A stretch of DNA of 64,000 nt from Patescibacteria group bacterium. GTDB lineage: Bacteria > Patescibacteriota > UBA1384 > JBAYJO01. Shown piece after piece: positions 37,926 to 56,186 of this stretch (the stretch's first letter is position 1; every line of letters begins with the position of its first letter). The stretch lies in assembly GCA_041665085.1 (NCBI GenBank), contig JBAYJO010000004.1, forward strand, positions 20,004 through 84,003, read 5' to 3'. The notes beneath the pieces are model-generated. The model searched no databases, was not told where the DNA came from, and saw only the letters and a program-made list of their open reading frames with translations. A program made the translations under genes and the position numbers.

Positions 37926-38846
37926 TCATTCGCTACTCTTATCCGAGTGAAGCTGGCAAGCCAAGCGCTCACGCGCTGCGAGCAAAGACCGAACTGTTTG
38001 CGGTTGCAAACCCGTACTCCAGTATTTCTTTCGATGCTCCCCATTCGCCACTTCGTCTAGGAACTGATCTATTGCGGGTCGAGAAGTAAACCAATGGCCG
38101 CTTTTGCGTTTGGCATGAAGCATTTTGCGGCCAAACATCGTTAGCAGCTTCTTGTATGTAATCTCGATCAGAAGTTCGTGAGCTTGTTCTGAAGAAAGTT
38201 CTCCCTCTTTCTGAAGCCAGTTTCGCTGACCGGCTTTTTGCCGCCTCTTCTTCTTCAGCTCTGGCATGATTTTGGCAATCTCTGGCAGATCCTCCCTCAT
38301 TACAGCCGAACGGCCGAAGATGTCCTCGCCTTTCGCTACTTTGAGAATATCTCTATTCATGTAGTTTCTCAAGCAGTTATCAGAAACACGAAGACCCAAT
38401 TTCTTCAACTCTACGACTGCAGTCGAATAGCTAACCCAGCAACAAACAGCAGTGCTTATACGTAGCGCTTCGTCTGCTTGGACAAACCAGTGCCCACCGC
38501 AAGTACCACGACGATGAGGGTCGAGAACCTTTACTCCAATGATCTTATTGGTATATACAAGATAATTGGGCTTCTTGATCCTGATCAGCTTAGCCAGATC
38601 CGCCAAAAAGCATCCTTCAGCGTGAGACTGTAAGAACTGCCAAACTGTATAAGGCAGGCCATTCACATATTGCACTGTTTCGTCTGGCAATATCGGTTCT
38701 GCACATGACTCGTCTTCATCTACCTCAAGTTCCTTTGCAACAATCGGAACAGGGGCAGACAACTTAGCTCGGCAGCCGATACACAAATCATTGCCTGGTA
38801 TAGCATCGCATAGACAAGATGCATAATTCTTGCATAGTCGAGACAT
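37926..38846 (-). CDS. hypothetical Cys-rich protein in GC-rich foreign patch
   Basis: 306-aa uninterrupted ORF in a patch of about 50% GC. N-terminal CxxxxxCxC...CxxC cluster. No family recognised. Confidence 0.5.
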   Translation of the reverse strand: MSRLCKNYASCLCDAIPGNDLCIGCRAKLSAPVPIVAKELEVDEDESCAEPILPDETVQYVNGLPYTVWQFLQSHAEGCFLADLAKLIRIKKPNYLVYTNKIIGVKVLDPHRRGTCGGHWFVQADEALRISTAVCCWVSYSTAVVELKKLGLRVSDNCLRNYMNRDILKVAKGEDIFGRSAVMREDLPEIAKIMPELKKKRRQKAGQRNWLQKEGELSSEQAHELLIEITYKKLLTMFGRKMLHAKRKSGHWFTSRPAIDQFLDEVANGEHRKKYWSTGLQPQTVRSLLAARERLACQLHSDKSSE

Positions 38847-38983
38847 AGTGAACGCCTCCGTTCGTTTGGTTTGAATAAACCTTAATTAAAATATACAGAA
38901 ATTTCAAGAAATAGCAATACGATAGCAATAATTTATATTCAAAAAATATTATTAAAAATTTCATAAATTTTATATATAATAGT

Positions 38984-39012
38984 TGGACAAAAAGCATATT
39001 AACTGGTATAAT
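38984..39012 (+). promoter_or_regulatory. sigma70-like promoter TGGACA-N17-TATAAT in the AT-rich divergent spacer of the GC-rich patch
   Basis: TGGACA at 38984-38989 and TATAAT at 39007-39012. RBS GAAGGAGG before ATG 39043. Confidence 0.5.
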
Positions 39013-39042
39013 ATATACATTGACTTGAAGGAGGACGATCAC

Positions 39043-39642
39043 ATGTCTCTGTGTTGCAGTAATTGTCAACGCGTTATGGCTCCAAGTACACAACTGCCGG
39101 GTACAGATGGTGTTATCATCACACCAAAACTAGTTGCCAACGGGTTCAAAGTCGAGCAGGGCAGCGATATCATTTGGCATCCGGTATATGCCACAGGACC
39201 GATTGAGGCAGCACTCTGTTTTGAGTGCGTGTTTTCAAAGGGTGTGGAGACTCAACCGGGAAAGATCGCTCTGATCCGAAGAATGTATAAACTCGAGGAT
39301 CATTACTGTGAGTTTCTCAACCTCGCAAAAACTCGCGGTTTGTCTGGACAAGAAAGTACAGAAAGCACTCTGCTAGGGAAGCAGATTACAGAGTTCTGTA
39401 GTCAGCTCGGATTGGCAGAATGTCTTTTCTGCCATGAAACATTGGAGACATTCAAGTCTCCAATGTTCATGGCAAAGATGTTCGATCGATACAAAGCAAG
39501 ACAGTCCCCCGGTTTTCAGCTGACCGGAAACTACCAATGGAGCAACTACGAAACAGGACACTACCTGTTCGGAGTCTGCTTCGGATGCTTCTCGAAACTC
39601 TACCTACCGTCATTGACCAAGCTTGGTTACCTGAAGTCCTAG
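39043..39642 (+). CDS. hypothetical Cys-rich protein (199 aa) in GC-rich foreign patch
   Basis: Strong RBS GAAGGAGG. Multiple CxxC pairs (CCSNC, CFEC, CLFC, CFGC). Hairpin terminator at 39671-39701. Confidence 0.55.
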   Translation: MSLCCSNCQRVMAPSTQLPGTDGVIITPKLVANGFKVEQGSDIIWHPVYATGPIEAALCFECVFSKGVETQPGKIALIRRMYKLEDHYCEFLNLAKTRGLSGQESTESTLLGKQITEFCSQLGLAECLFCHETLETFKSPMFMAKMFDRYKARQSPGFQLTGNYQWSNYETGHYLFGVCFGCFSKLYLPSLTKLGYLKS

Positions 39643-39670
39643 CCAGCTAACCGAATTGGGTCAATAGACC

Positions 39671-39708
39671 AACGCCCGATCGGTTTATCTCATCGGGCGT
39701 TTGCATTT
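39671..39708 (+). terminator. Hairpin AACGCCCGAT-N11-ATCGGGCGTT followed by TGCATTT
   Basis: 10-bp GC-rich stem immediately after the 39642 stop. Confidence 0.5.
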
Positions 39709-39831
39709 CATGAGAACAAGAACGATAATGAGTCTGTCGACAAATGCGCTTTTGAAGCGAAAGTGTCAGTTTACAGCCCGCCTAGACTCGTCTCGATTCG
39801 AATCGAAACTATTTAGTCGAGGCTGGCCAGA

Positions 39832-40131
39832 ATGGTATTTGTCGACAGGGTCAATAATTGCAAAGGGGGTGATGAGGCCGTGCTGGTCATTTTGAGAATA
39901 ATTGCAGCAGTAGGCATGATCGTCTTTCTGCTTGCGGGCGTATGTCTGTCCATTGTCGCATTTGTGTTGATTATGCGAAACAGCATACTGACAACGCTTG
40001 GGTTGCTTGCTCTATCTTCGCTATCCCTACGGGTAAGCATGTGTTTCTGCGAGCTGTTTAGCTATGCAGATAGAATGTACTGGAACAAGCATTGGGCTAG
40101 GTTCTTAGGTTTCACGAAAACCAAAGCCTAG
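39832..40131 (+). CDS. small two-TM membrane protein (likely GTG start near 39877)
   Basis: RBS AAGGGGGTGA. Hydrophobic segments. CCTAGCCAGC direct repeats at 39637-39650 and 40127-40139 flank it. Confidence 0.35.
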   Translation: MVFVDRVNNCKGGDEAVLVILRIIAAVGMIVFLLAGVCLSIVAFVLIMRNSILTTLGLLALSSLSLRVSMCFCELFSYADRMYWNKHWARFLGFTKTKA

Positions 40132-40252: not shown

Positions 40253-40285
40253 ATACGAACAAAATACGAACTTATCCACATATTG
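40253..40285 (+). repeat. Left copy of 33-bp imperfect direct repeat ATACGAACAA..CGAACTTATCCACAT (partner at 54636-54668)
   Basis: 28 of 33 positions are identical to the right copy, including a 15-bp exact core CGAACTTATCCACAT. Together they bracket the R-M/defense island. Confidence 0.7.
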
Positions 40286-40347
40286 ATATACATCCCTGTT
40301 AAGTCTAGAATATAAGTAAATAAGCAAAGGCTAAAACATGGGAAAAA

Positions 40348-40860
40348 ATGAAAAAAGAAAAACACCATACGGTTTATGCATTTATAGATAGCCAAAATCT
40401 AAATCTAGCTATTCAGGATCTTGGCTGGAAATTAGATTATAAAAGGTTTAGAGTTTATATTGAAGATAAATTTGAAGTTAAAAAGACTTTTCTTTTTATT
40501 GGTTATATTAAAGGAAATGAAGTTTTATACGAAAATTTAAAGAGATCCGGTTATAATCTTATTTTTAAACCAACACTTGAGTTTAAAAAAGATAAAAAAG
40601 TTCAAACCAAAGGAAATGTTGACGCTGAGTTAGTTTTACATACTATGATTGAGCTCAATAATTTTGACAAAGCGGTTATTATTTCCGGTGATGGTGATTT
40701 TCATTGTCTTATAGAATATCTTTTAAGAAAAAATAAACTAAAATGCGTTATTGTGCCTAATTTTTACAAGTTTTCAGCTTTACTTAGAAAATTTATGAAG
40801 TATTTGTATTTTTTAAATAAATTAAAAAATAAACTGGAATATACAAAAGAGAGGCATTAA
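40348..40860 (+). CDS. NYN/LabA-like (DUF88) PIN-fold domain protein
   Basis: VYAFIDSQNL...GNVDAELVLHTM...VIISGDGDF pattern. Confidence 0.55.
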   Translation: MKKEKHHTVYAFIDSQNLNLAIQDLGWKLDYKRFRVYIEDKFEVKKTFLFIGYIKGNEVLYENLKRSGYNLIFKPTLEFKKDKKVQTKGNVDAELVLHTMIELNNFDKAVIISGDGDFHCLIEYLLRKNKLKCVIVPNFYKFSALLRKFMKYLYFLNKLKNKLEYTKERH

Positions 40861-41104
40861 CCTTCGGACAAAACCTTAGGTGTGGCCTCTCATCATGATT
40901 CTTAACTAAGAATAACAAATCAAAACAAAAAAGTCAATAGCAGTGGATAAAAATCAGATTGGTTGATTTTTGGTTGAAAAGTAGATTTGAATAGTAAATA
41001 ACTCAAAAAAACTCTTGTTTTGCATATGGTATAGGAGTAGAATTTGGGTAGTTAAATATATATAAAATGTTTATATTTAATATATTTTAAAATAAGGACT
41101 AAAT

Positions 41105-41377
41105 ATGGCAGAAATACATAAAAAAGTTTGGTGCGAATATTTTGAGAAAATAATCTCCGGAGAAAAAAAGCTGGAGCTTCGTCTAGCAGATTTTGAAGTA
41201 AACAAAGGAGATATCCTTGTCTTGGAAGAGTGGGACAAAGACACGAAGTCTTACACTGGGAGAAAAGTGGAAGCTACTGCAAATTATATTCTAAAGACAA
41301 AAGATGTTAATTTCTGGCCAAAAGAAGAAATCGAAAAATATGGTTATCAAATTATCCAATTTGAAATTAAGGACTAA
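41105..41377 (+). CDS. small ASCH/PUA-like protein (DUF3850-like)
   Basis: 90 aa. [19 protein letters not shown]...[10 protein letters not shown]...YTGRKVEA resembles DUF3850. Stop lies 3 bp before the hsdM start. Confidence 0.45.
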
Positions 41378-41379
41378 AT

Positions 41380-42933
41380 ATGGCAAAAAATAATAGTGCT
41401 AATGTGGGATTTGAAGAAAAACTTTGGGCGGCGGCTGATAAAATGCGCGGATCAATGGATCCGGCAGAATATAAGCACGTTGTTCTCGGACTTATTTTCT
41501 TGAAATATATTTCCGATTCATTTGAAAAGCGTCGACAAGATGTGATTAAGGAAGATGGGGAAGAATTTGTTGATGATCACGACGAATATACAATGAAAAA
41601 TGTTTTTTGGGTACCTATGATCGCACGCTGGTCAAATATTCGTGACAATGCCAAAAAATCAGAGATCGGTAAGCTGATCGACGATGCTATGTATGCCATT
41701 GAAAAAGAAAACTCTGACCTCAAAGGTGTACTTCCAAAAGACTATGCTCGCCCCGCGCTAGACAAACAACGATTGGGTGGTGTTATAGACATCATTTCCC
41801 AAGTTGACCTTCTTGAAAGTAATGGCAAAGATGTTCTCGGTCGAATTTATGAATATTTTCTTGGCCGATTTGCCGGCAGTGAAGGTAAGGGCGGTGGTGA
41901 ATTCTACACTCCACAATGCATTGTTAAACTACTCGTTGAAATGATTGAACCATACAGCGGCCGCGTTTATGATCCATGTTGTGGTAGCGGAGGCATGTTT
42001 ATTCAGTCAGAAATGTTCAACCGTAATCACGATGGCAAAAAAGATGACATGATTGTCTATGGTCAGGAATCAAATCATACCACATGGCGACTTTGTAAAA
42101 TGAATCTAGCCCTTCGTCACATTGACAGCTCAAATATAAAAAACGGTAACAGTTTCCACAATGATTCCCACCCGGATCTAAAAGCTGATTTTGTTTTAGC
42201 AAATCCACCTTTTAATGATAGTGACTGGGATGGCCAGCTTCTGCGAAACGATGTTCGCTGGAAATACGGCTTACCCCCAACTGGCAGTGCTAACTATGCT
42301 TGGATCCAGCACTTCATTTATCATCTCGCACCAACTGGCATCGCAGGTTTTGTAATGGCCAACGGCGCCATGTCATCTAATAGTTCCGGTGAAGGTGAAA
42401 TTCGCGCCAACCTAATTAAAGCGGGGCTTGTCGACTGTATTGTCGCCATGCCGGACAAATTGTTCTATTCGACTGGAATTCCATGTTCACTATGGTTTGT
42501 TTCGCGTGACAGATACGATCATAAATTTCGCAACCGTCATGACGAAATCCTCTTTATTGATGCTCGCAAAATGGGCACAATGGTTGACCGCCGCCATCGT
42601 GAGCTGACCGATGAAGATGTTAGAACTATCTCCGAGACATATCATAACTGGCGAAACCTTTCCCCCTCTGTCATCCCGAGCGAAGCCGAGGGATCCTTTA
42701 AATACGAAGACAAAAAAGGCTTCTGTAAGGCTGCCAAAATCGAAGAAGTTGAGAAAAATGGCTATGTCTTAACTCCCGGGCGTTATGTCGGCACAGAACT
42801 TGTCGAAGAGGATGACGAAGTTTTTGAAGAAAAAATGCAGCGGCTCACCGCGGAACTAAACCAGCAATTCGTCCAGTCCAAAGAATTAGAGGAAAAAATT
42901 AAAGAAAACCTTAAAAAAGTTATTGAAAATTAG
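41380..42933 (+). CDS. hsdM: type I restriction-modification system N6-adenine DNA methyltransferase subunit
   Basis: HsdM N-terminal domain. SAM motif [12 protein letters not shown]. Catalytic NPPFN. Confidence 0.92.
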
Positions 42934-42975
42934 ATTATTTATATTATCAATTTAGCCTGTATTTGATAATAAGTC

Positions 42976-43004
42976 TTGACATATTTGCAAATGTCAAATA
43001 TAAT
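42976..43004 (+). promoter_or_regulatory. Consensus sigma70 promoter TTGACA-N17-TATAAT embedded in the near-palindrome TTGACATATTTGCAAATGTCAA
   Basis: TTGACA at 42976-42981 and TATAAT at 42999-43004, 30 bp upstream of the fic ATG. Confidence 0.6.
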
Positions 43005-43033
43005 GGATATACTATTAACAGGAGTTTGCAAAA

Positions 43034-44164
43034 ATGAATAAAGAATATTCAGCAGGTCAATACATACAACAAAATGAATACAAGAGCTTTAGACCATCTT
43101 TAATAAATGGTGATTTTTCATGGAAAGAGAAAAAAATTAATGTTCTCCTAGAAGAAGCTACTAGGTTTCTTGGAGAGCTAAATGCATATTCCAAATTAAT
43201 ACCTGATGTAAATTTTTTCATAAAAATGAATGTGGCCAAGGAAGCCATTACATCCAGCCGCATTGAAGGAACAAAAACCCAAATTGACGAGGCATTATTG
43301 CCTCAAGAAGAAATTGACCCAGAAAAAAGAGATGATTGGGCTGAAGTTCAAAACTATATAAAAGCTATGAATTTCTCTATAGAGGAGCTAAAAAAAATTC
43401 CTCTATCAACAAGACTCATGAAAGAAGCACACAAAATTCTTCTTTCTGGAGTCAGGGGTAAATATAAAACACCCGGAGAATTAAGAACATCACAAAACTG
43501 GATTGGAGGATCCAATTTGAGTGATGCCTTTTTTGTTCCGCCTCACCATACAGAACTTCCAGATCTTTTAACTGACTTGGAGAAATTTTGGCATAATCGT
43601 GAATTAGAAATTCCTCAACTGATTAAAATTGCTATCAGCCATTATCAGTTTGAAACAATCCATCCATTTTTAGACGGTAACGGTAGAATCGGAAGATTAT
43701 TAATCACATTGCAACTGGTTGAACTAGGGTTTTTAGATAAACCCACTCTTTACCTTTCTGACTTTTTTGAAAAAAACAGAACATCCTACTACGACTCACT
43801 TTCAATGGTGAGGCAGACAAACGACATAGAACAATGGATCAAGTTTTTTCTCAATGGAATCATTCATACTTCAAAAAATGGAAAAGAAACTTTTGAAAAA
43901 ATCGTTACACTTCGTCAAAGCTATGAGAGTAAAATCATGAGATTAGGATCCAGAGCTAAAACCGGCCAAGAGTTAATGCTGGCATTATTTTCTAATCCCA
44001 TCATGAATTTAAATCAAATATCGGAAAAATTAGATATTTCTTATGCTACCGCAAACCGGCTGATATCTGATTTTGAAAAATTCAACATTGTCAGAGAAAT
44101 GACCGGTTTTTCAAGGAATAGATTATTTGTAATGGATGAGTATTTGAATTTATTTAAGAGGTAG
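43034..44164 (+). CDS. fic: Fic/DOC family protein (AMPylation motif [12 protein letters not shown]; inhibitory SxxxEG motif present)
   Basis: [14 protein letters not shown] is the canonical Fic motif HxFx(D/E)GNGRxxR. TSSRIEGT resembles the auto-inhibitory helix. C-terminal wHTH-like region. Confidence 0.88.
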
Positions 44165-44184
44165 AAACCAAAAGTAGGAAATCG

Positions 44185-44982
44185 ATGCAAAATGAGGAAA
44201 AACTAAACACAACTAATAATATTTCGGCCCCCATCGGCTTAGATTACTTTAGTGGGGTGAGTTTGTATTTACAGTTGTTTGTGAATTCCCAACACTTAGG
44301 CCAAGCAACCGGATTTGTTATCGAAAACAATAATAAAAAATATCTTATTGCTAATTGGCATGTAGTATCAGGTAGAGATACAATTACAGGTAAGCCGTTA
44401 TCAAAAACCGGTGGTCTTCCAGACAAAATAAATATTGCACACCACTCTAGTAGTGACTTTGGCACATGGTGGTTTATAAACGAGCCATTATATGATGGAG
44501 AAAAGCAGCTTTGGCTAGAGCATCCTAAGAGTACAGAATCGAACAGGATAGATGTTGTTGTGCTGCCTCTCACAAGGACAGAAGAGAAACTTGCTTTCGT
44601 CCCCCTAAACCTAAATCTCGCTAAATCAGATATGGTGGCACATCCTGCTCAAACAGTTTCAATTATTGGGTATCCGCTCGGCTTAAGCGCTGATGATAAA
44701 GTTCTCATTCCGATATGGAAAACGGGGCATATCGCTTCAGATGTAGAGTTAAATGAGAATTTCTTCCTAATTGACGCGACAACGAAAAGTGGAATGTCGG
44801 GTTCTCCAGTAATTATGCGTTCTTCAGGGGGATTTCAGACAAAAAATGGCTCCTGGATAATGGCAATGGCAGGGATGAGAGAGTTATTTCTGGGTGTATA
44901 TTCCGGAAGAATCCACGAACTTTCAGAAATAGGGAAAGTTTGGAAACCCAAACTGATCGAGGAAATATTAAATGCAAGATAA
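44185..44982 (+). CDS. cytoplasmic trypsin-like serine protease (chymotrypsin fold)
   Basis: No signal peptide. Putative triad His in ANWHVVSG, Asp in RIDVVVLPL, Ser in GMSGSPV. Confidence 0.55.
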   Translation: MQNEEKLNTTNNISAPIGLDYFSGVSLYLQLFVNSQHLGQATGFVIENNNKKYLIANWHVVSGRDTITGKPLSKTGGLPDKINIAHHSSSDFGTWWFINEPLYDGEKQLWLEHPKSTESNRIDVVVLPLTRTEEKLAFVPLNLNLAKSDMVAHPAQTVSIIGYPLGLSADDKVLIPIWKTGHIASDVELNENFFLIDATTKSGMSGSPVIMRSSGGFQTKNGSWIMAMAGMRELFLGVYSGRIHELSEIGKVWKPKLIEEILNAR

Positions 44983-46123
44983 CCAGACAAAATTTAAAGA
45001 AACTGAAGTTGGACTGATCCCGGAGGGTTGGGGGGTTTTGAAATTCGGGGATGTATCAAATTTTCGTTACGGAAAGATGCCAGAAAAAAACAAAATTACT
45101 TCAACAGGCTATCCGATATACTCTGGTTACAGAGTGGTCGGGAATTATTCTGAATGTATGTGTACCCAACCCAAGCTGATTATCGTGGCAAGAGGTGTTG
45201 GCGGCACAGGCGATGTAAAAATTTCACCACCAAATTGTTGGGTAACAAACTTGAGTATAATTGCTGATCTAGATGAAAAAATAATAAATAAACAATTTCT
45301 AAAATATTATTTTCACAGGGGTTTAAAAAGATTTGATAGTGGATCCGCTCAATCGCAGATCACAATAGGCGACTTAAATAATATCGAGTTAACATTGCCA
45401 CCCATCGAAGAGCAGCGAAAGATTGCGGAGGTTTTGGGGGCGCTGGATGATAAAATTGAATTGAATCGGAAAATGAATAAAACCCTCGAATCCATCGGCC
45501 AAGCCATTTTCAAACATACCTTTCGTCATTCTGAGCAAACCGAAGAATCTCTTAAACCGTTATCGGAATTCGGTCAAATCGTTTGTGGTAAAACTCCTTC
45601 GAAAGCCAAGTCGGAATATTTTGGCGGAGAAATACCCTTCATTAAAATTCCTGATATGCACGGACAAACTTTCATTCTAAAAACCGAGGATTCGTTAACC
45701 GAAGAGGGAAAAAATAGTCAGCCGAATAAAACAATCCCCACTGGTTCGATTTGTGTAAGTTGTATTGCTACGGTTGGACTAGTCTCAATCACTGAAAAGA
45801 ATTCACAAACAAATCAGCAGATAAATTCGATCGCTCCCTTTAAAAAAGAACTTACTTATTATTTGTATTTTTCTTTGAAGGAAATCGAGCAAGACATTAA
45901 AGATATGGCGAGTGGCGGCTCGGCGACACTAAATTTGAACACTGGTCATTTTTCAAATATTAAAATTGTTATGCCGGAGGATGAAGACTTGCATCGATTT
46001 GATAAAAAAATAAAACCACTCTTCGACCAAATTTTAAATAACATGAAACAAATCGAAACTTTATCGAAAATCCGCGATTCCCTATTACCAAGATTAATGA
46101 ATGGAAAGTTGAGATTGGGATGA
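44972..46123 (+). CDS. hsdS: type I restriction-modification system specificity subunit
   Basis: Two TRDs separated by the conserved LPPIEEQRKIAEVLGALDDKIELNRKMNKTLE. Overlaps the protease gene by 11 bp. Confidence 0.9.
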   Translation: MQDNQTKFKETEVGLIPEGWGVLKFGDVSNFRYGKMPEKNKITSTGYPIYSGYRVVGNYSECMCTQPKLIIVARGVGGTGDVKISPPNCWVTNLSIIADLDEKIINKQFLKYYFHRGLKRFDSGSAQSQITIGDLNNIELTLPPIEEQRKIAEVLGALDDKIELNRKMNKTLESIGQAIFKHTFRHSEQTEESLKPLSEFGQIVCGKTPSKAKSEYFGGEIPFIKIPDMHGQTFILKTEDSLTEEGKNSQPNKTIPTGSICVSCIATVGLVSITEKNSQTNQQINSIAPFKKELTYYLYFSLKEIEQDIKDMASGGSATLNLNTGHFSNIKIVMPEDEDLHRFDKKIKPLFDQILNNMKQIETLSKIRDSLLPRLMNGKLRLG

Positions 46124-46947
46124 AAAACCATGAAAAAGTTTTAGCTTTAACTCATAAAATCGTAATCACCGATGAATTCGAAAACAGAGTTAAGAAAGAA
46201 ATTATTGAACCAGTATTAGATCAGATGACTTTTACAGCGTTAAATTTTCAAAAATCAGATCCTAATAGCAAACTATCGATTGCTGAAAAATTTTTTCTTG
46301 ATGTAGACAAAGTTGTTTTTAGATTGTTGCAGTGCCATAAACACCAAAAGAATTATGACATTATAGAATCAGAAAGGATTAAGGAGCTGAACGCTGACAT
46401 ACAAAAAACAACAAAGTTTATTGATGAGTGTTGGAGGCCGCTCGAATTAAATTGTGAAATTGATGCATTTCTAACTAAGTGGAAATCGTCACTTGATGCT
46501 TTAGCTAAAACATTAATCCCTCTTTATGGGATAAACTCTAAGACATGGAGCGATAAAGGAAAAAAAATAATTAATCAGTTAAACAATTTATCAGCAGAAA
46601 AAGTTAAAAAAATACAACCATTGATTAACATTATTGAAGAAAATAAGGGTCAGATTGGTTCAATAATTGATCTAAGAGATAAAGTTGTACATTATGATAC
46701 TGAATGTTTAACACCTTTTCACTACAGGCTCAAAGAGAAAAAACTTCATAACCCAAGTTTAATATGGGATGGCAATGTCTATATGCCCCAAGACTTCATG
46801 ACACAAGCATCTGAGTATTTACTAGATTTCACGAGGGAGTTTATCGTTAAATCTATAAATGGTTTTGTTGAGGCTTTGTATATTGTCGTCACAACCGACG
46901 GTCACCAATGGTTTATGCCACCAGATAAGATCAAGGAGTCGAAATGA
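46120..46947 (+). CDS. hypothetical protein embedded between hsdS and hsdR; possible HEPN-like (Rx4H) domain
   Basis: 275 aa, mostly helical by composition. RDKVVH fits Rx4-6H. 4-bp overlaps with both neighbours. Confidence 0.5.
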
Positions 46948-49900
46948 AATACACTGAATCGTCATTAGAAGAAGCGACTAGGGAATGGTTTGAGGAACTT
47001 GGCTATCAAGTCATTTATGGGCCGGATATTGAGCCGGAAAGTGAAAAACCGGAGCGAAAGGATTTTTCACAAGTGGTTTTGGAAGGAAGGCTCCGATCTG
47101 CAATCGAAAGAATAAATTCTGATATTCCGGCTGATGCTCTGGATGAAGCTTTTAAAAAAGTTGTAAATGTAACTCATACCACATCGCTTTTGGTGTCGAA
47201 TAATCAGATATTCCATAAATATTTAGTTGGCGGTGTTGATGTTGAATATCAAAGAAAAGACGGCTCTATTGCAGGCGATAAAGTTTGGCTCGTTGATCGA
47301 AAAAATATTGAGAATAATGATTGGGTTTGGCTTAATCAGTTTACAATTGTAGAAAATAGTAATCGTCGACCGGATGTCGTTATTTTTGTGAACGGTTTGC
47401 CACTGGCCGTTTTTGAACTAAAGAATTTAGCAGATGAAAATGTTGGTATTAAAGAAGCATTTAATCAGATTCAAACCTATAAACAAGATATTCCATCACT
47501 ATTTGCTTACAATGAACTAGCAATTATTTCCGATGGCCCGGAGGCAAAAATCGGATCCATTACTTCTGACACAGATCGCTTTATGCGCTGGAGAAGTGTT
47601 GATGGGGCAGAATTAGCATCTGACGTAATTCCTCAACTTGAAGTATTGATTAAAGGGGTTTTTGATAAAGAGCGATTGCTTGATTTGATTTGCAATTTTA
47701 GTGTTTTTAACACGATCAAGAAAGATTCGGAAGAAAAAATTATTAAAATCATCCCGGCCTATCATCAATATTTTGCAACAAATAAAGCCTTAGAAAGCAC
47801 ATTGGCGGCTACTTCTGAAAATGGTGACAGGCGCGCCGGAGTGGTGTGGCATACTCAAGGAAGTGGCAAGAGTTTGACGATGGCTTTTTTTGCCGGCAAG
47901 TTAATTGATCGACTGAATAATCCGACTATCGTCGTTTTGACAGATAGGAATGATTTGGATGATCAGCTTTTTGATACATTTTCAAAATGTAAAGATTTAT
48001 TGAAACAAAAACCGGTCCAAGCAGCCAATCGTAAACATTTACGCGAGCTTTTGAAAGTTGCGAGTGGCGGAGTAGTATTTACAACAATTCAGAAATTTTT
48101 GCAAAAAGGATTTCTGGACAAAATGCTTTTAACTGGTCGGCGCAATGTGGTGGTGATTGCCGATGAAGCGCACAGAAGCCAATATGATTTTATAGATGGC
48201 TTTGCCAGAAGCATGCATGAAGCATTGCCGAATGCGTCATTTATTGGTTTTACCGGAACCCCGCTTTCTTCTGCTGACAAAGACACCGAGCGAGTTTTTG
48301 GCAAATATGTTGATGTTTATGACATTACTCAAGCAGTGGCCGACAAAGCGACGGTGCCGATTTATTATGAAGCCAGATTGGCGAAAATTAATTTGCTTGA
48401 ATCAGAAAAACCAAAAATCGATGCAGATTTTAATGATATTACAGAAGATGAAGAACCAGAAATGGTTGAGAAGTTAAAAAGCAAATGGGCGCGGCTTGAG
48501 GCGATGGTTGGAAGCGACAAAAGAATTAAGCAAATCGCCAAAGATGTGGTAGAGCATTTTGGAAATAGGCAAAATGTAATGAATGGCAAGGGCATGATCG
48601 TGGTAATGAGTCGAAGAATCGCCACTGATTTGTATGATGAAATTATTAAATTAAAACCGGAGTGGCACCAAGACTCAAATGAAAAAGGATTTTTGAAAGT
48701 TGTGATGACCGGTTCGGCCTCTGATCCTTTAAATTTTCAAAGGCATATTCGTAACAAAGAAGAACTACACAAAATGGCAGATCGAATGAAAGATCCAGAA
48801 AACGAATTACAGCTCGTGATTGTGCGTGATATGTGGCTGACTGGTTTTGATGTGCCGAGTTTGCATACGATGTATATTGATAAGCCAATGAAAGGTCATG
48901 GTCTAATGCAGGCGATCGCTAGAGTTAATAGAGTTTATAGAGATAAACCAGGTGGTCTGATTGTTGATTATTTGGGTATTGCACCACAATTGAAAGAAGC
49001 ATTGGCGGATTATTCTCAAAAAGATCAGGGGAACACTGCCATTGATCAGGAAGCAGCGGTTTCTGTGATGCTAGAGAAATTTGAAGTGATGCAGGGAATG
49101 TTTCATGATTTTAATTATGTAAAGTATTTCAAAATGAGCGCTTCACAGAAAACAAGCTTTTTTGGTGATGCAATGGAATTTGTTTTGACGCTTGATCCAG
49201 TTGACGATGAAGCGAAGAAAAGATTTGTCAAAGCAGTGACAGAATTATCTAAAGCATTTGCTCTGGCTGTACCGCATGAAAAAGCACTTGCGATTAAAGA
49301 TCATGTCGGATTTTTCCAAGCACTGCGGGCGCATGTAAAGAAATTATCACCTGTAAATGGTCCAACTGAAGAAGATTATGACATGGCAATTAAACAGATC
49401 GTTTCTGATTCGATCGCTTCGGGTGAGATTATTGATGTATTTACTGCAGCCGGGCTAGATAAGCCGATGGTTTCAATTTTGTCCGATGAGTTTTTGGAGG
49501 AAGTGAGAGGACTTGGCAGACAAAATGTTGCTTTGGAAATATTAAAAAAATTATTGAATGACGAGATTAAATCTTTTATGCGAAAAAATGTTGTAAAGGG
49601 GCGATCGTTTTCAGACATGCTAGAAAAAACGATTAAGGCTTATCAAAATCGAACCATTGAAGCAGCACAAGTTATTTCTGAACTGATCAAATTAGCAAAA
49701 GAACTCCGGGGAGAAGTTGAAAGAGGAGCGGAAACTGGACTGTCAGATGACGAGATCGCTTTTTATGATGCTCTAGCCGATAATGAGAGCGCAAAATTGG
49801 AGCTTGGCGATGAAACATTGAAAAAGATCTCTCGGGAATTGGTTCAGATGATGCGGGAGAACACGACAATTGATTGGACTTTACGAGACAGTGTAAAAGC

Positions 49901-50030
49901 CAAGATGAGAATATTTATTAAAAAATTATTGAAAAAATATGACTATCCGCCAGACAAACAAGAAGGCGCGACGCAGTTGGTATTATTACAGGCAGAAACC
50001 GTTTGTAAGGATTGGGTAGGAAAGGAATAA
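46944..50030 (+). CDS. hsdR: type I restriction enzyme R subunit (helicase/endonuclease)
   Basis: N-terminal nuclease domain. SF2 helicase motifs ([12 protein letters not shown] in [11 protein letters not shown]). Confidence 0.93.
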
Positions 50031-50031
50031 C

Positions 50032-50790
50032 ATGTCCGAATATTACAAAGCAAATCGAACAAGAAATATATTTGATCCGAAAACTCAAGAAGTTTTTAAA
50101 CTAAGTCGGTCGAAATTAGAACTTTTTACCGAATGTCCACGCTGTTTTTATATTGATCGCCGGCTCGGAGTCGGCAGACCTCCCGGATTTCCATTTAACC
50201 TAAATACAGCAGTTGATACCTTGCTCAAAAAGGAATTTAATATTCATCGCGCAAAAGGGGAGACTCATCCGCTGATTGAAAAATATGATGTTGACGCTCG
50301 ACCGGTTCCGCATGAGAGCTTGGACAAATGGCGAGAAAACTTTGTTGGCATTCAGTATTTACACAAACCAACCAATCTAATGATCACCGGTGCAATTGAT
50401 GACCTTTGGATCAATTCAAAGGGTGAATATATAGTCGTAGATTACAAATCAACCAGCAAAGAAGAAGAAATTACAGCGCTCGACAAAGACTGGCACGATG
50501 GATACAAACGCCAGATGGAAATATACCAGTGGCTCCTTAGAAAAAATGGACTAAAAGTATCAAATACCGGTTATTTTGTTTATTGCAACGGACGAACTGA
50601 TCTTGAGGCATTTGACGCGAAACTAGAATTTGATATTACTTTAATTCCATATATTGGCAACGACTCTTGGATTGAAAAAACCATCGCTGATGCACATATC
50701 TGCCTTTGCTCTGATTCTATTCCCGAAGCTAACCCAGAATGTGATTATTGCAATTACATCGAAGCCATTCAAGAAATTAATAAAATATAA
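50032..50790 (+). CDS. PD-(D/E)XK nuclease with 4-Cys cluster (Cas4/RecB-nuclease-like, DUF83-like)
   Basis: N-terminal CPRC. GAIDDLW...VVDYKS (D...D-x-K). C-terminal CLC...CDYC. Starts 2 bp after the hsdR stop. Confidence 0.5.
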   Translation: MSEYYKANRTRNIFDPKTQEVFKLSRSKLELFTECPRCFYIDRRLGVGRPPGFPFNLNTAVDTLLKKEFNIHRAKGETHPLIEKYDVDARPVPHESLDKWRENFVGIQYLHKPTNLMITGAIDDLWINSKGEYIVVDYKSTSKEEEITALDKDWHDGYKRQMEIYQWLLRKNGLKVSNTGYFVYCNGRTDLEAFDAKLEFDITLIPYIGNDSWIEKTIADAHICLCSDSIPEANPECDYCNYIEAIQEINKI

Positions 50791-50860
50791 GCTGTTGCCT
50801 ACCAATAGATTCGTTCACAATTGTTAAAATAATAAAATAAAATAAAATAAAAACAAAGAG

Positions 50861-51640
50861 TTGCATATGGAAAATACGGAAAAACCACAAGAAAAAGAAT
50901 ACGATGATTGGAAAGCCCCAGAGGTAAGTGAAAAACCAATTCAACCTTCTATTGCTGGGGAGGAACCAACAGACACCCAATTGGTTATCGAGACAAAAAA
51001 GAAAGAAGAATCGGAGCGAGAAATATCTGAAGCAAGAAGCCAATTGGCACAAATTACCGAATCACAACCAGACAACTACTCATCTGGCACACGACTTGTT
51101 AAAGAAGTGGAGAAGATCTTAGAAGATCCTGATAAATATGTTGGTAGAGGTGCCGAAAAAATAGTACTTGACCATCCTTCTGACCCCGACAAAGTAGTAG
51201 CTAAATTTCATGCCAAACCTGATGTTGAGTACATGAAACAACAATATTATCTCAACAAATTACTTCATATTTTTCTCCCTCATAATATTCCCGACGTGCA
51301 CATGGTAGTAACAGATCCGCCGCTCCTCGTCTCGGATAAAATCAAACCGCCAGAAAAAATTAATCCAGTAAGTGCTTTTCTAAAAAAATCTCTCGGTCGA
51401 ATTTTATTAAAACGTAAGTTAAATAAACTGGATGTGTTCATTGACGGCAATGATTGTAATTTAATTTTTGATCAAAATGGTTCACTTAATTATGTTGACT
51501 CTCCAACAGGAGGATCTAACCTGGACAAATTAAGAAAAGTAGCTGACCAGCGTTTACACGATGAAGATCTTGAGAAAGCGCACCAATACATTGATCGACT
51601 AGAACTGTGGAAAAGAAGAAAACGTGATTTCAAGCTGTGA
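50861..51640 (+). CDS. hypothetical protein with acidic N-terminal region and a possible atypical kinase-like core
   Basis: VGRGAEKIVLD...VVAKF resembles a glycine-rich loop plus VAxK. Otherwise unrecognised. Confidence 0.45.
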   Translation: MHMENTEKPQEKEYDDWKAPEVSEKPIQPSIAGEEPTDTQLVIETKKKEESEREISEARSQLAQITESQPDNYSSGTRLVKEVEKILEDPDKYVGRGAEKIVLDHPSDPDKVVAKFHAKPDVEYMKQQYYLNKLLHIFLPHNIPDVHMVVTDPPLLVSDKIKPPEKINPVSAFLKKSLGRILLKRKLNKLDVFIDGNDCNLIFDQNGSLNYVDSPTGGSNLDKLRKVADQRLHDEDLEKAHQYIDRLELWKRRKRDFKL

Positions 51641-51906
51641 TAATTTATATTATAAAATATAAAAGTAAAAAATTTCCTAATTTTAATGGATAAGAAATGA
51701 GAGAAAATCATTGGAGTGTAATAAATGCTGAGCTAGAGACTCTCCTCATTATTAAAAAATTAAGCTGAAATGAATCAATAAAATGAGAAGAAAATTGATA
51801 AACACAAGTTAGCTGAAATTACACTAAAGCTATAGAAAAGATAATTTACTAATACAAAAAGCCCACGGATCACTTCGAAGGCCTTGTAGAATTGCGAGGT
51901 TGAAGA

Positions 51907-52332
51907 TCAACCTCTACGACATCTTGTAGCTGTGACTTTGGTCTTTGTGCCAGCTTCAGCTTGAGATTCAGCTGATAACGCCTTGCTTGCAGCAATAAGG
52001 TCATCGAGCTTATTGCGAGAAGTGAACACTGGTATCCACTTGACTCTCAATATCTTCAACACAAATGCCGCTTGTTTATTGGAAGACAACAAAGCAATAT
52101 AGACTTCTTTGTCCTTTGCTTTTTCCGTTGCCGCCGCTAAAATAGCGACTCCAAAATGATCCAAGTATGAGACCTGATTCAGATCGATTACTATGTAATC
52201 GCCACTCATTGCTCATTGGACTTTCTGAAGCAATCGCGATCTGATCAAAGTGAGGTCGGGATTAGTCTTGATGATCTCACCTTTCCACAAGACCAATAGT
52301 TCCTTACCTGTAAAAAGCAAGGGGTTGTTCAT
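51907..52332 (-). pseudogene. STAS-domain (anti-sigma-factor antagonist-like) gene interrupted by an in-frame TGA
   Basis: Minus strand reads ATG(52330-52332) MNNPLLFTGKELLVLWKGEIIKTNPDLTLIRSRLLQKVQ-TGA(52213-52215)-AMSGDYIVIDLNQVSYLDHFGVAIL. The whole matches one STAS domain. The local GC is elevated. Confidence 0.45.
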
Positions 52333-52603
52333 TACCTTTTTTCAAGACTTGTTCATTGCTCCCATCCTTATCTGTCAACAACTAACGATAGTGTTGGAGA
52401 CTGTACTTGTCTAAAAATCAGACAAGGCAATCCCCAAAGCATTTGATAATGTACGACTACAATTTATCATATTTTAAGTTAAAAAAAATACTCATTAATA
52501 CTTTTTGATACTTAATTAAAATTGAGTTATTGTTACTTTAGTTTTAGAATGTAAATAATTATAAATAAAATTAATTGGCTTTAAAATATATTAAGGAAAT
52601 AAT

Positions 52604-53521
52604 ATGTATGAATACAAAAAACCAACTCCAATAATCATTAAATTAACTGATGAAGAAGGAATTAGATTAAGACAACAAGCATGCGATTATATTTCTAGCA
52701 ATCAAAACAAAAAAGGAGCTGAAAGAGGAAGCAAGGATCAACAAGGTTTTGGTGCGTTAGCAGAAATGGTTATTAGAAATCAATTAGGAATGGCTGAAAT
52801 CAATGATTCCACGCATCCACTATCATATGATATTTTGCTGTCCGGAAAAATTAAAGCAGATGTTAAATGTCGAGGAGGTGCGCTCCCATTCAAGGAAGAA
52901 TATATTGGTGGAGATGGATTTCCAAGAGAAGCGAAACACAATTTATTTGCTCGACAAATTTTTGATGAAAATTTGGATACCGATATTTATATAATGACTC
53001 ATTTAGAACACCCTAAAAATAGTGAACTCCCAGGAACCAAAAGACAAAAGAAATGGATTCTTTACATCTGTGGATGGGTGTCAAAAGAAAGAGCAAAAAA
53101 TGAGGGAGTATTTTTACCACGAGGATCATTAACAGAACAAGGTAACAAGTGGTTCCCGTATCGAGGACAAGAAATTGAGTATTATCATAAAAATCTCAAC
53201 GGGCTTGAAAAAATAGTTGATTTATTAAAAATTGATGAAGCTGATGTTCAGAAAGATAGAAATAAAATTGGTGATTTAAATTTAACTTCTGTTGATGCCC
53301 TTAGAATTACTTTTGATTTAGTAGGCAGGGGAATATTAGATAAAAAATATATCGATTTTATTAAAAGTATTACAAATTTATCAGAAACAGTCAGACCAAT
53401 ATTACACATAAATCAATATTTTCATCTTTTAAAATGGCTTGAGGAGAAAAATCAGATAGGAGTCGATGAGTCGAAAAAATTAAGCAAAATAATCGAAGAA
53501 ATACCTTATAGTGGGATTTAA
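52604..53521 (+). CDS. putative type II restriction endonuclease partner of the adjacent methyltransferase
   Basis: Convergent to the MTase gene, overlapping by 4 bp. Possible PD-(D/E)xK signature (D...ADVK). No family confidently recognised. Confidence 0.4.
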   Translation: MYEYKKPTPIIIKLTDEEGIRLRQQACDYISSNQNKKGAERGSKDQQGFGALAEMVIRNQLGMAEINDSTHPLSYDILLSGKIKADVKCRGGALPFKEEYIGGDGFPREAKHNLFARQIFDENLDTDIYIMTHLEHPKNSELPGTKRQKKWILYICGWVSKERAKNEGVFLPRGSLTEQGNKWFPYRGQEIEYYHKNLNGLEKIVDLLKIDEADVQKDRNKIGDLNLTSVDALRITFDLVGRGILDKKYIDFIKSITNLSETVRPILHINQYFHLLKWLEEKNQIGVDESKKLSKIIEEIPYSGI

Positions 53522-54543
53522 TTAACCAGTCTCATGGAATTTATTTGCGATTGTTCAAGTGCTTTAGTAATTCTGTTATTACAAATATCAATATAATCTA
53601 CTTTTTTTTGTTTATGTAAATAAGTTTCTTGGTTTTTCTCAATTCCAATAAATTTTCTACCTTCCAAAATGGCTGAGACCAAAAAACTTCCACTGCCGCA
53701 AGCATTATCAAGAACAATTTCATTACCATTTGTAAATGTTTTGATTAAATATCGTCCAAGTTCAATTGGTTTTTGTGTTGGATGAAAAACTTCTCCTTCA
53801 CTTTCCGCCGTTTTAAAATAAACAACATCATTGGGATATCTGTCGCCACTGCTTTTAACTTCGACGGAGCCAAAATCACCATAACTACCTGTAAGCTGAT
53901 TCTTTCTGTATCCCTTATTAAACGGTAGCCCCGGAGTCATTTGAGGATTATATTTGGGTTGTTTTTTATAAAAAATACATATATCCTCATGTTTTCTCAA
54001 AGGTTGTTTTTTAGCATTTAAAAAATTTGTTGCCTTTGATTTTACCCAGACTAATTTATATTTAAATAGTGCAGTATTGGAAAGTATAAGTTTTGCAGTG
54101 AAAATACCTTGAGAAGTTAGCACAATAGCTCCACGATCTTTAATAATTCTTTCATATTGAGCCCAAAGCTTATCTAAAGGAATAACGCTGTCCCAATTAT
54201 TTTGAGTCGTTCCATAAGGAAGATCACACAATATCATATCAACCGAATTATTTGGCAACAATGGTAAGACATCAAGACAATCGCCTTGAAAAACATGATT
54301 TAAAAAATAATCAATTTTGTTCTGATAAACAAAATCGTTTTTTACATTAATAATTTGAGAATTTGCAAAATTTTCCCCTTCGATAAAATCAAGAATACTA
54401 TTACCCTTAAATCGACGAAGATTATTTATTTTAAGCGAAGGTATCTTATTTTCTGCTATATATCGTCTAATAGTGCCATCGGAAACTTTTAAATAATTCG
54501 CAATCTCATCAACTGTATATAATTTATCTTTAATAATTTCCAT
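53518..54543 (-). CDS. beta-class N4-cytosine/N6-adenine DNA methyltransferase with N-terminal HTH
   Basis: Motif IV DLPYG precedes the C-terminal motif I LDNACGSGSF. The N-terminus TVDEIANYLKVSDGTIRRYI is a MerR/excisionase-like HTH. Confidence 0.8.
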   Translation of the reverse strand: MEIIKDKLYTVDEIANYLKVSDGTIRRYIAENKIPSLKINNLRRFKGNSILDFIEGENFANSQIINVKNDFVYQNKIDYFLNHVFQGDCLDVLPLLPNNSVDMILCDLPYGTTQNNWDSVIPLDKLWAQYERIIKDRGAIVLTSQGIFTAKLILSNTALFKYKLVWVKSKATNFLNAKKQPLRKHEDICIFYKKQPKYNPQMTPGLPFNKGYRKNQLTGSYGDFGSVEVKSSGDRYPNDVVYFKTAESEGEVFHPTQKPIELGRYLIKTFTNGNEIVLDNACGSGSFLVSAILEGRKFIGIEKNQETYLHKQKKVDYIDICNNRITKALEQSQINSMRLVN

Positions 54544-54635
54544 AACCCCTCATTGTACTAATTTATATTAATATGTATCATCTTATGCTATTATATAACA
54601 TATTCATTACAATATATATTATAACACGTTGATAA

Positions 54636-54668
54636 ATACGAACAAGAACCGAACTTATCCACATCTGG
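54636..54668 (+). repeat. Right copy of the 33-bp imperfect direct repeat (partner at 40253-40285)
   Basis: ATACGAACAAGAACCGAACTTATCCACATCTGG compared with ATACGAACAAAATACGAACTTATCCACATATTG. Confidence 0.7.
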
Positions 54669-54740
54669 TACTTTCCTAAAAATCATGATATAATAATACA
54701 AGTGGCGTAAATCGCGCCTTTTTAAATTAGCCCAAAATAT

Positions 54741-56186
54741 ATGAATGAAGAAGTAGTATTACGATTTGACGAAGTATATTTCGAATATCAACACAACAAA
54801 CCTATTTTAAATGAGGCTAGTTTTAGTGTCCGAAAAAGCGCAAAAATTACTCTAATGGGACAAAATGGTGCAGGCAAAAGTTCACTATTTGCTCTGATCC
54901 GAGGCGATATAAAACCAAAATCAGGAAAAATATCAATTACTAATGATGCTACAATTGCCACTGCTCGCCAAGTCATGTCGCGCGAAGATGCGAAATTAAC
55001 TATCACAGATTATTTTGCCAATGCATTCGATAAGGTTCCCGCTGATTTAGCCAGTAAGATTCATAAAGTTATGACAGCAGTAAACCTAATTATGCCAACC
55101 AATAGAATTATTGGCACCCTTTCCGGCGGAGAACAAGCAAGAATGTTGCTGGCATTTGCCTTGATTCAAGATTCGGACATTTTATTACTTGATGAGCCAA
55201 CAAATAATTTAGATAAAACCGGCATCGATCATCTGATAACATTTTTGGTAATGTACGACAAAACAGTGATCGTAATTTCTCACGACGCTGATTTTTTAAA
55301 TTGCTTTACCGAAGGAGTTATTTATCTTGATGATTTTACTCATAAAATAGAAAAATATGTAGGCGATTATTACTCTGTAGTTGAAGAAATTGCAGCCCGA
55401 GTCGAACGCGAACAAAGAAAAAACGCACAACTTAAACGAGCAATTATTGATCGTAAAGAAAAAGTAAATTTTTTCGCCAATAAAGGTGGAAAAATGCGAA
55501 AATTGGCCAGAAAACTTAAAGATGAAACCGAAGAGCTTGAAGAAAACATGGTGGATGTGAGGCGCGAAGATAAAACCATCAGGAGCTTTGATATTCCTGT
55601 TCAAGATATTTTTGGCGATATAGTAAAAATTGACAAAGTAACTTTTTTCAAAAATGGCAAACAAGTCGAAAATCGAATTGAAAAAATAATTCACAAACAA
55701 AATCATCTATTAGTTGCCGGACCAAATGGTGCCGGTAAGAGCACTTTTTTGCGTTCGCTAGTAGCTGGAAGTAACAAAAATGCAAAAATTTTAAATGAAG
55801 TAAGAGTTGGTTATTATAGCCAAGACTTTTCTAATCTTGATTTTAATCAAACAGTTTTCGATTGTCTCATGAGCGCAATAGTTGATGACACGGATATCCA
55901 AACTATGCGTTCAGTTGCAGCCGGTTTTTTAATAACAGGGGATTTGATGGGACAAAAAGTAGGAAGTCTGTCTGAAGGACAAAAAGGATTATTATCTTTT
56001 GCTCGTTTGGTTATTATGGAACCCGGACTTTTAATATTAGATGAACCAACCAATCACATAAATTTTCGACATTTACCAATAATCGCCAAAGCAATTAGTG
56101 AATATAAAGGTGCAATGATTATGGTTAGCCATATGCCAGATTTTGTCGAGCAAATAAAATTTGATGAATACATCGACCTATTTTAA
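54741..56186 (+). CDS. ABC-F family ATPase (two tandem ABC domains, no TM domain)
   Basis: Walker A GQNGAGKSS and GPNGAGKST. Signature motifs LSGGEQARM and LSEGQKGLL. Confidence 0.8.
   Translation: MNEEVVLRFDEVYFEYQHNKPILNEASFSVRKSAKITLMGQNGAGKSSLFALIRGDIKPKSGKISITNDATIATARQVMSREDAKLTITDYFANAFDKVPADLASKIHKVMTAVNLIMPTNRIIGTLSGGEQARMLLAFALIQDSDILLLDEPTNNLDKTGIDHLITFLVMYDKTVIVISHDADFLNCFTEGVIYLDDFTHKIEKYVGDYYSVVEEIAARVEREQRKNAQLKRAIIDRKEKVNFFANKGGKMRKLARKLKDETEELEENMVDVRREDKTIRSFDIPVQDIFGDIVKIDKVTFFKNGKQVENRIEKIIHKQNHLLVAGPNGAGKSTFLRSLVAGSNKNAKILNEVRVGYYSQDFSNLDFNQTVFDCLMSAIVDDTDIQTMRSVAAGFLITGDLMGQKVGSLSEGQKGLLSFARLVIMEPGLLILDEPTNHINFRHLPIIAKAISEYKGAMIMVSHMPDFVEQIKFDEYIDLF

Follow-up and report, generated by a model that had tools for sequence, protein, structure and literature searches.

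Are the two imperfect 33-bp direct repeats that bracket a cluster of defense genes in a Patescibacteria genome the ends of an integrated island, or do they recur there for another reason? The repeats lie on contig JBAYJO010000004.1 of a Patescibacteria group bacterium (assembly GCA_041665085.1), within a stretch of 64 kb that was analyzed in full and is referred to here as the window; all coordinates are those of the window unless a locus is named. The first-pass annotation, made from the sequence alone, interpreted the repeats as duplicated attachment (att) sites of an integrated defense island, and offered as an alternative that one operator had been reused upstream of two genes. Our analysis favors the alternative on the basis of motif recurrence, orientation, footprinting, and promoter spacing. 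Judged from sequence comparisons, the two 33-mers are probably separate instances of a conserved promoter-proximal operator in Berkelbacteria-like Patescibacteria, and not island ends.

The repeats themselves are as originally described. Copy 1 (ATACGAACAAAATACGAACTTATCCACATATTG, 40253-40285, plus strand) falls in the intergenic DNA that separates a GC-rich patch from an NYN nuclease gene. Copy 2 (ATACGAACAAGAACCGAACTTATCCACATCTGG, 54636-54668, plus strand) occupies the divergent intergenic region between a DNA methyltransferase gene on the minus strand and an ABC-F gene on the plus strand. The coordinates, the agreement at 28 of 33 positions, and the exact 15-bp core (CGAACTTATCCACAT) were all reproduced, and the repeat search returned the pair as direct repeat family D12 (29 nt, 90% identity, spacing 14383 nt). 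Likewise, the distances of 66 nt from copy 1 to the NYN start (40348) and 76 nt from copy 2 to the ABC-F start (54741) agree with the 65-80 bp first given. The 15-mer is found at just these two sites in the window with up to two mismatches tolerated, and the 29-nt pattern ATACGAACAANAANCGAACTTATCCACAT is also confined to two window sites at up to three mismatches, with no match in any of 100 dinucleotide-preserving shuffles of the window. Because of this restriction to two sites and the lack of shuffle matches, the repeat is taken to be real rather than fortuitous. An apparent third copy at 37979 (CGAGCAAAGACCGAAC) was rejected, as it lies inside an open reading frame (ORF) and lacks a DnaA box.

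Each copy contains two features on which the first-pass annotation did not remark. One is an internal direct repeat, CGAAC-N6-CGAAC, which can equally be written GAAC-N7-GAAC and has an 11-bp period. The other is a perfect DnaA-box consensus, TTATCCACA, located at 40272-40280 in copy 1 and 54655-54663 in copy 2; both window copies match the DnaA-box consensus TTATNCACA at 9/9 positions. The resulting core consists of CGAAC, an A-rich N6 spacer, CGAAC, and TTATCCACA, so that two repeats one helical turn apart are fused to a DnaA box:

40256-40280, plus strand: core of motif copy 1, 25 nt, CGAAC-AAAATA-CGAAC-TTATCCACA
54639-54663, plus strand: core of motif copy 2, 25 nt, CGAAC-AAGAAC-CGAAC-TTATCCACA

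No dyad symmetry or hairpin was detected in the motif, which has a fold energy of 0 to -2.4 kcal/mol, not below that of shuffles.

This composite motif recurs well beyond the window. We scanned JGI metagenome contigs for exact matches to CGAAC-N6-CGAAC-TTATCCACA, with 19 positions fixed and the spacer free; the DnaA box is part of this pattern and is hence present in the metagenome instances by construction. Matches were obtained on 21 contigs. In 18 of these, the spacer is A-rich and starts with A (for example AAAAAC, AAAATA, and ACAAAG), and all 18 instances are intergenic. The other three have GC-rich spacers, include the only two matches inside long ORFs, and look like chance background. 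Once near-duplicates were merged, approximately 15 distinct loci were left. Each contig has a single copy, and this holds for those of 224, 45, 41, and 34 kb as well; the taxon labels available for two of the loci are Candidatus Berkelbacteria (L051) and Patescibacteria (L064). When the 15 loci are combined with the two window copies, 14 of the 17 run in the same direction as a gene whose start lies 27-170 nt downstream, according to our reading of the orientation tables. The first-pass annotation had itself reasoned that occurrence of the motif at many unrelated promoters would point to a regulator binding site instead of att sites. This is essentially what was found, since about 15 metagenome contigs have the motif beside a promoter and the loci concerned are unrelated.

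Elsewhere the motif is scarce. Plasmid (7.3 Gb) and phage (2.3 Gb) collections from cultured hosts do not contain it, and the 860 kb of retrieved DNA contained no degenerate copies (up to four mismatches) besides the exact-pattern matches. Searches of Rfam and of the searchable literature gave no relevant match. A scan of viral contigs produced a single match on a T7-like contig of 48% GC (L041 5644-5668, CGAACTTCAGGCGAACTTATCCACATAT); its spacer is not A-rich, and the match was set aside as chance. It lies between two blocks of genes that diverge from each other, and its extension to CACATAT is curious.

The genes that follow the motif belong to a restricted set of DNA-processing and defense families, with DNA methyltransferases of restriction-modification (R-M) systems and Pif1 helicases recurring:

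L045: NYN gene
L046 and L051: operons of an N4/N6 methyltransferase and a TdeIII-type endonuclease
L057: methyltransferase and PD-(D/E)XK nuclease
L054 and L061: Pif1, in one case with RhuM
L059: Pif1-HTH_40, between recJ and radA
L060 and L049: small ORF followed by Schlafen AlbA_2, with a ParB-methyltransferase further on
L064: RmuC
L062: DUF3800

Across the distinct loci and the window, this amounts to two NYN, four methyltransferase/R-M, and four Pif1 instances, together with Schlafen, RmuC, and DUF3800. The NYN, DNA methyltransferase/R-M, and Pif1 families are common to the window and the metagenome loci. For example, the Pif1 protein of the window is 65.5% identical to that of L059, which has the motif directly upstream of its gene.

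Two observations concern individual families in this set. A conserved ORF of about 70 amino acids (L060 6297-6509, minus strand; L058 1412-1708, plus strand; and L049), which includes the sequence DAPGMRGIRSRNExGPLREKRGDTHI, comes after the motif on three contigs and precedes Schlafen AlbA_2 on two of them. The NYN genes have at least 8000 matching close homologues in Patescibacteria, which are often placed directly behind housekeeping genes, such as those for UDP-glucose dehydrogenase, ValRS, or an acetyltransferase, with no intergenic gap (L070 4001-4510, L072 4001-4507, and L073 3065-3574). The idea that the motif is tied to the NYN family was rejected, as these homologues are very common and often sit within operons, where they lack the motif.

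Between orthologous promoters, conservation is confined to the motif. The methyltransferases of L046 and L051 are 66% identical; the sequences flanking their motifs agree at background level (0.52-0.58), whereas identity within the motifs is 0.92. Between the window and L045, identity is 45% for the NYN proteins and 0.88 for the motifs. Over the L046/L051, window NYN/L045, and window copy 2/L059 comparisons, identity is 0.88-0.92 in the motif and 0.52-0.65 in the flanks. For L054 and L061, the corresponding values are 0.92 in the motif, 0.50 upstream, and 0.75 downstream. Apart from the motif, the motif loci have no 11-mer in common, and there is therefore no second "end" sequence as would be expected of a cassette.

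Predicted promoter elements follow the motif at regular distances. Those downstream of the two window copies are:

40283-40311, plus strand: sigma-70-like promoter after copy 1, TTGATA, 17 nt, TAGAAT (40306-40311), matching 10/12 consensus positions
54686-54694, plus strand: extended -10 element TGaTATAAT after copy 2 (hexamer 54689-54694), with no good -35

In both cases, the -10 hexamer begins 25 nt past the motif end. Among the other loci as well as these, the best -10 element after the motif falls at 21-25 nt (six loci), 30-32 nt (four loci), 43 nt (the Schlafen lineage), or 54 nt (the DUF3800 lineage). Most are TGn extended elements accompanied by a weak -35. Spacing classes that differ by about one helical turn, along with a site that adjoins a weak -35, would fit a promoter-bound factor and not a recombination scar.

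The leader between the copy 2 promoter and the ABC-F gene (54695-54740) also contains a GC-rich hairpin followed by a T-run, which resembles a terminator (54704-54718, plus strand). An equivalent is present at about 9930-10000 in L001, a Berkelbacteria locus whose ABC-F protein is 74% identical. This element resembles the transcription attenuators by which antibiotic-resistance ABC-F genes are controlled.

Synteny provides a direct test of whether the repeats are island edges. The closest relative found was ENA contig L042, of which the AspS protein is 81% identical, and breakpoints were located with tblastn and blastn. L042 is syntenic with the window through the block of ribosomal-protein, pheST, rluB, and aspS genes. 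Next to aspS, it contains a single pilin-like gene, which is followed by Peptidase_S11, RNase III, and NusB; the counterparts of these last three are at 61517-63638 in the window. Positions 10061-11401 of L042 align to 36529-37869 and positions 12470-13286 to 61678-62500, which places the left breakpoint just past the aspS stop (approximately 37870) and the right breakpoint upstream of 61517. The variable segment can thus be described as follows:

~37870-61500: segment of ~23.6 kb in place of which L042 has ~0.93 kb with one pilin-like gene

As the repeats begin at 40253 and 54636 and not at the breakpoints, the att reading fails this test. The variable segment contains both repeat copies in addition to the GC-rich patch, the ABC-F and Pif1 genes, a 548-aa protein without assignment, and an M23 peptidase. 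It was correctly noted that the GC-rich patch lies to the left of the repeats and ABC-F/Pif1 to the right, but both belong to the variable segment and not to its flanks. What holds up is that the region is part of a segment that L042 lacks. The real extent of the island is different from that defined by the repeats, and there are no demonstrable att sites: the breakpoints are elsewhere, and recombinase, tRNA, and dyad are all lacking.

Further comparisons bear on the same point. An empty site, in which aspS would be followed directly by ABC-F/Pif1, was not found, although this is a weak test at 81% AspS identity. The right junction (methyltransferase, motif, ABC-F) is identical in contigs of three samples, and none of the contigs covering it in these samples is island-free. 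There are no additional motif copies in the 8.4 kb beyond the window end, making two copies in about 72 kb overall. A scan of GTDB for the ABC-F protein retrieved 36 Patescibacteria loci, the nearest being L001; none of the 36 contains the motif, and only L001 has ABC-F together with Pif1, in different surroundings. Apart from this pair, the loci show no conserved synteny with the window. An exact-sequence look-up of the window ABC-F protein gave no record.

A recombination site might nevertheless be of another type. Each copy could form the 5' boundary of a module that was acquired on its own and mobilized by a recombinase acting in trans in an Xer-exploiting or integron-like manner; the window would then hold a two-module array, with the first module running from NYN through the methyltransferase and the second comprising ABC-F-Pif1. 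The copies are direct, in the same orientation, and share an exact 15-bp core, and both are inside the segment missing from L042. In addition, the motif stands ahead of mobile-type genes (R-M, DUF3800, Schlafen, and NYN) in varied housekeeping contexts. Plus-strand GC skew stays above zero between 3 and 56 kb and is negative beyond, with the sign changing near 56-58 kb and gene orientation shifting alike; this change could reflect a replication terminus or merely a local gene-strand switch. Imperfect direct repeats of about 30 bp around defense cargo with no integrase inside are also known from att/dif-like systems, such as the gonococcal genetic island.

On balance, we consider such a recombination site unlikely. 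The repeats are away from the L042 breakpoints (~37.87 and ~61.5 kb), only the occupied junction was seen in the three samples, and the modules share no second sequence at their other end. No integrase or recombinase is encoded in or beside the segment: the earlier statement that no integrase is visible was borne out by Pfam, NCBIfam, and PADLOC searches, in which the ORFs of 37.9-61.5 kb gave no integrase, recombinase, or transposase match, and no tRNA genes were found in the 64-kb window. A dyad or hairpin is required by the core sites of tyrosine and serine recombinases and by attC sites; the motif has neither. Unlike att/dif-like repeats, it is single-copy at unrelated loci, on contigs of up to 224 kb, and its spacing to -10 elements is regular and appears phased. 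Xer/dif sites are 28 bp in length, have two inverted 11-bp arms around a 6-bp center, and are unique at the replication terminus. In contrast, the motif has no inverted arms and the orientation of genes around it varies among loci, being neither consistently divergent nor convergent, which argues against a replication landmark; the skew change at 56-58 kb is the sole hint in favor. Integron attC sites are foldable imperfect palindromes with GTTRRRY-type cores that lie 3' of promoterless cassettes, whereas the motif lacks folding potential and lies 5' of genes with their own predicted promoters, and no integron integrase was found.

If the motif is instead an operator, a sequence-specific factor would bind the 25-bp site and set the transcription of DNA-processing and defense genes. 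This factor may be DnaA on the proximal box, with or instead of a direct-repeat-binding regulator on the distal half. Copy 1 would control the NYN gene. Copy 2 would act on the ABC-F-Pif1 operon and perhaps also on the divergent methyltransferase gene, the promoter of which sits in the intergenic region holding this copy. Activation would fit, since the -35 elements are weak and the site is upstream of them; repression through occlusion of the -35 would also be possible. The copies would seem to bracket the R-M cluster because motif-controlled genes concentrate in the variable, defense-rich segment.

DnaA is a reasonable candidate for the proximal half, as a prediction from the box itself. Among 720 kb of Patescibacteria loci, 12 of the 16 perfect TTATCCACA boxes are intergenic, compared with 11.8% of the DNA (binomial p ~1e-5, with duplicate loci merged and the two window copies omitted). 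Given this concentration, DnaA boxes look functional at promoters in the phylum. For example, a third perfect box in the window (2598-2606, minus strand) is located between a 218-aa gene and rpoB, L066 has one 30 nt upstream of the lexA -10, and L042 has one (12217-12225, minus strand) in the gap between aspS and Peptidase_S11 that is the counterpart of the variable segment. Besides the boxes of the window and L042, 10 intergenic sites lie in L008-L066. DnaA boxes serve as transcriptional operators of dnaA and nrdAB in E. coli and in the DnaA regulon of B. subtilis. As in those operators, the proximal 9 bp of the motif match the consensus at 9/9 positions and adjoin the core promoter, and extra DnaA-like boxes occur in tandem in L048, L049, L060, L052, and L056. 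Unlike in those operators, the box forms a unit of constant spacing with GAAC-N7-GAAC, which is itself not DnaA-box-like. The motif-linked genes also depart from those of DnaA regulons, being R-M, Pif1, NYN, RmuC, and Schlafen genes and not genes of replication or nucleotide metabolism, and no dnaA or oriC context was seen at the motif loci.

The distal half, with its two 5-6-bp repeats 11 bp apart and an A-rich spacer, fits winged-helix regulators. With operators of the PhoB/OmpR type, which replace or adjoin the -35 hexamer, the motif has in common a pair of short direct repeats (11-bp period, A-rich spacer), a position just upstream of a weak -35, and spacing classes about one helical turn apart. 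However, the sequence of the motif bears no relation to known pho or OmpR boxes, its distance to the -10 is at least 21 nt and not about 10 nt, and no two-component regulator was identified near it.

CGAAC is also the half-site of the Gram-positive LexA box. The distal half could accordingly be the SOS box of a LexA that recognizes direct repeats, with the downstream genes forming a DNA-damage regulon. The repeat unit and its spacing equal those of direct-repeat LexA boxes on the other strand: the alphaproteobacterial LexA box, GTTC-N7-GTTC (PMC8565304), becomes GAAC-N7-GAAC when reverse-complemented. Another source cites a Patescibacteria study as a case of LexA recognizing a direct repeat (PMC7739468). 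Some motif-linked genes function in DNA repair, namely RmuC and the Pif1 beside RecJ and RadA. Within L066 (3001-6645), lexA is followed by RhuM, PD-(D/E)XK, and Pif1 genes, which are families linked to the motif elsewhere.

A LexA box is nonetheless quite unlikely, since the four Patescibacteria lexA promoters compared have a different box and core SOS genes are missing from the motif-linked set. These four promoters, which are independent, lack CGAAC-N6-CGAAC and share another element, approximately TGAAAC-N4-GTAAACA, just past the -10:

L007 13660-13700: lexA promoter with the TGAAAC-N4-GTAAACA-type box
L065, L066, and L068, each at ~2930-3000: lexA promoters with the same type of box

In these lineages, this direct-repeat-like box probably serves as the LexA operator. 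The approximately 15 motif-linked units contain no lexA, recA, uvr, or translesion-polymerase gene, and the invariant DnaA-box half is without a LexA counterpart or explanation.

A very unlikely explanation is that the motif is a promoter in its own right, read by an alternative sigma factor through -24/-12-like blocks, or a competence-type box resembling TACGAATA. The strong orientation bias, with start codons 27-170 nt downstream, would agree with this, as would the two conserved blocks 11 bp apart and the occurrence of TACGAAC twice in copy 1. The set of motif-linked genes (DNA processing, methyltransferases, RmuC, and RadA) also resembles the late competence regulons of streptococci. However, good sigma-70-type -10 elements, often extended, already follow the motif at phased-looking spacings, the TA before CGAAC varies across instances, and the block spacing is unlike the -35/-10 geometry of known sigma-70-family factors. 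In addition, the gene ahead of three instances is convergent, with its 3' end toward the motif. Finally, a chance resemblance of two AT-rich intergenic regions that each hold a DnaA box can be practically discounted, since none of the 100 shuffles gave a double match and the 25-mer with an A-rich spacer is present on 18 metagenome contigs upstream of related families, even though the window has a third perfect TTATCCACA in another context and the T7-like viral contig carries a match that is probably chance.

Several observations weigh against the operator that we favor. The instances in L047, L052, and L056 face no downstream gene, and the roughly 600 kb covered from 36 further Patescibacteria genomes yielded no copy with up to four mismatches. 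The motif is patchy among close homologues: the ABC-F-Pif1 locus of L001 retains the promoter and leader without it, and it is also missing from the closest NYN homologue (L074, 92%) and from operon-internal NYN genes. Its copy number is low and it is less degenerate than a typical regulon motif; since the scan had 19 fixed positions, the instances counted are exact matches only. The patchiness, as well as the low copy number per genome combined with the association with accessory genes, would suit a recombination site. Furthermore, the promoter positions are consensus predictions.

While the operator is ordinary as a kind, this composite 25-bp site appears new as an instance. A broader proposal would be that the site defines an unrecognized regulon in Berkelbacteria-like Patescibacteria, in which R-M, Pif1/RmuC, and NYN/Schlafen/DUF3800 genes are wired to DnaA and to a second factor reading GAAC-N7-GAAC; we regard this as possible, if rather doubtful. 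If it is true, newly acquired defense genes would gain host control through one compact site, and defense and DNA-methylation capacity would be coupled to replication status in regulator-poor organisms. Transcriptional regulation in the candidate phyla radiation (CPR) is almost uncharted, and Patescibacteria genomes encode very few regulators. The site is compact and deeply conserved, and it recurs in numerous uncultured lineages. It would provide a testable entry point into how CPR bacteria control defense and DNA-processing genes, and bears on whether DnaA is a general transcription factor in Patescibacteria. For this locus, the operator reading would remove a false mobile-element call. The lesson would be that short conserved operators can mimic att repeats where regulated accessory genes cluster.

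The gene content of the region was annotated by profile searches of the window ORFs against Pfam, PADLOC, and NCBIfam. Its main features are listed below, with the sources of the matches in brackets:

37926-40131: GC-rich patch of 2.2 kb with three ORFs, 43-47% GC against a background of ~33%, outside the repeat pair and inside the variable segment
40348-40860, plus strand: NYN/LabA-like nuclease gene downstream of copy 1 (Pfam NYN, 5e-15; PADLOC NYN)
41105-51640, plus strand: series of type I R-M genes interspersed with cargo (Pfam, PADLOC), consisting of the nine entries that follow
41105, plus strand: DUF3850/ASCH
41380, plus strand: hsdM
43034, plus strand: Fic
44185, plus strand: trypsin-like protease
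44972, plus strand: hsdS
46120, plus strand: 275-aa ORF without assignment, between hsdS and hsdR
46944, plus strand: hsdR
50032, plus strand: Cas4-like PD-(D/E)XK nuclease
50861, plus strand: ORF without assignment
51907, minus strand: STAS fragment
52604-53521, plus strand: 305-aa protein without assignment, convergent with the methyltransferase gene
53518-54543, minus strand: HTH_17/excisionase-like N4/N6 DNA methyltransferase (Pfam, NCBIfam)
54741-56186, plus strand: ABC-F (Pfam, NCBIfam ABC-F)
56196-57920, plus strand: Pif1-HTH_40 helicase with C-terminal HTH_40 (Pfam)

The view that everything between the repeats is defense or mobile-type cargo was mostly correct, as NYN, DUF3850, type I R-M, and the STAS fragment are present. 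It does not extend to the kinase-like gene that was also listed, since no ORF had a kinase-like match in Pfam, PADLOC, or NCBIfam. The genes at 52604-54543 form a putative type II R-M pair, in which the endonuclease role of the 305-aa protein is suggested by position only. Downstream of copy 2, the ABC-F and Pif1-HTH_40 genes (54741-57920) are likely to form an operon. The type I R-M operon is unusually laden with cargo: Fic and the protease split hsdM from hsdS, and the 275-aa ORF splits hsdS from hsdR. The three ORFs of the GC-rich patch had no Pfam, NCBIfam, or PADLOC match even at relaxed E-value, and their translations are not recombinase-like; the 306-aa ORF among them has a cysteine-rich N-terminus.

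Two minor observations were made in assembled contigs. Gene calls on a Logan contig include a 100-aa product with a weak CsrA match (61081-61383, minus strand), the gene for which sits between those for the M23 peptidase and a small membrane protein on one side and Peptidase_S11 on the other. Independent short-read assemblies of the same strain, from three samples, are interrupted within hsdS (45451) and, at almost identical points, within ABC-F (55304-55483), which hints at repeats or strain variation at those positions.

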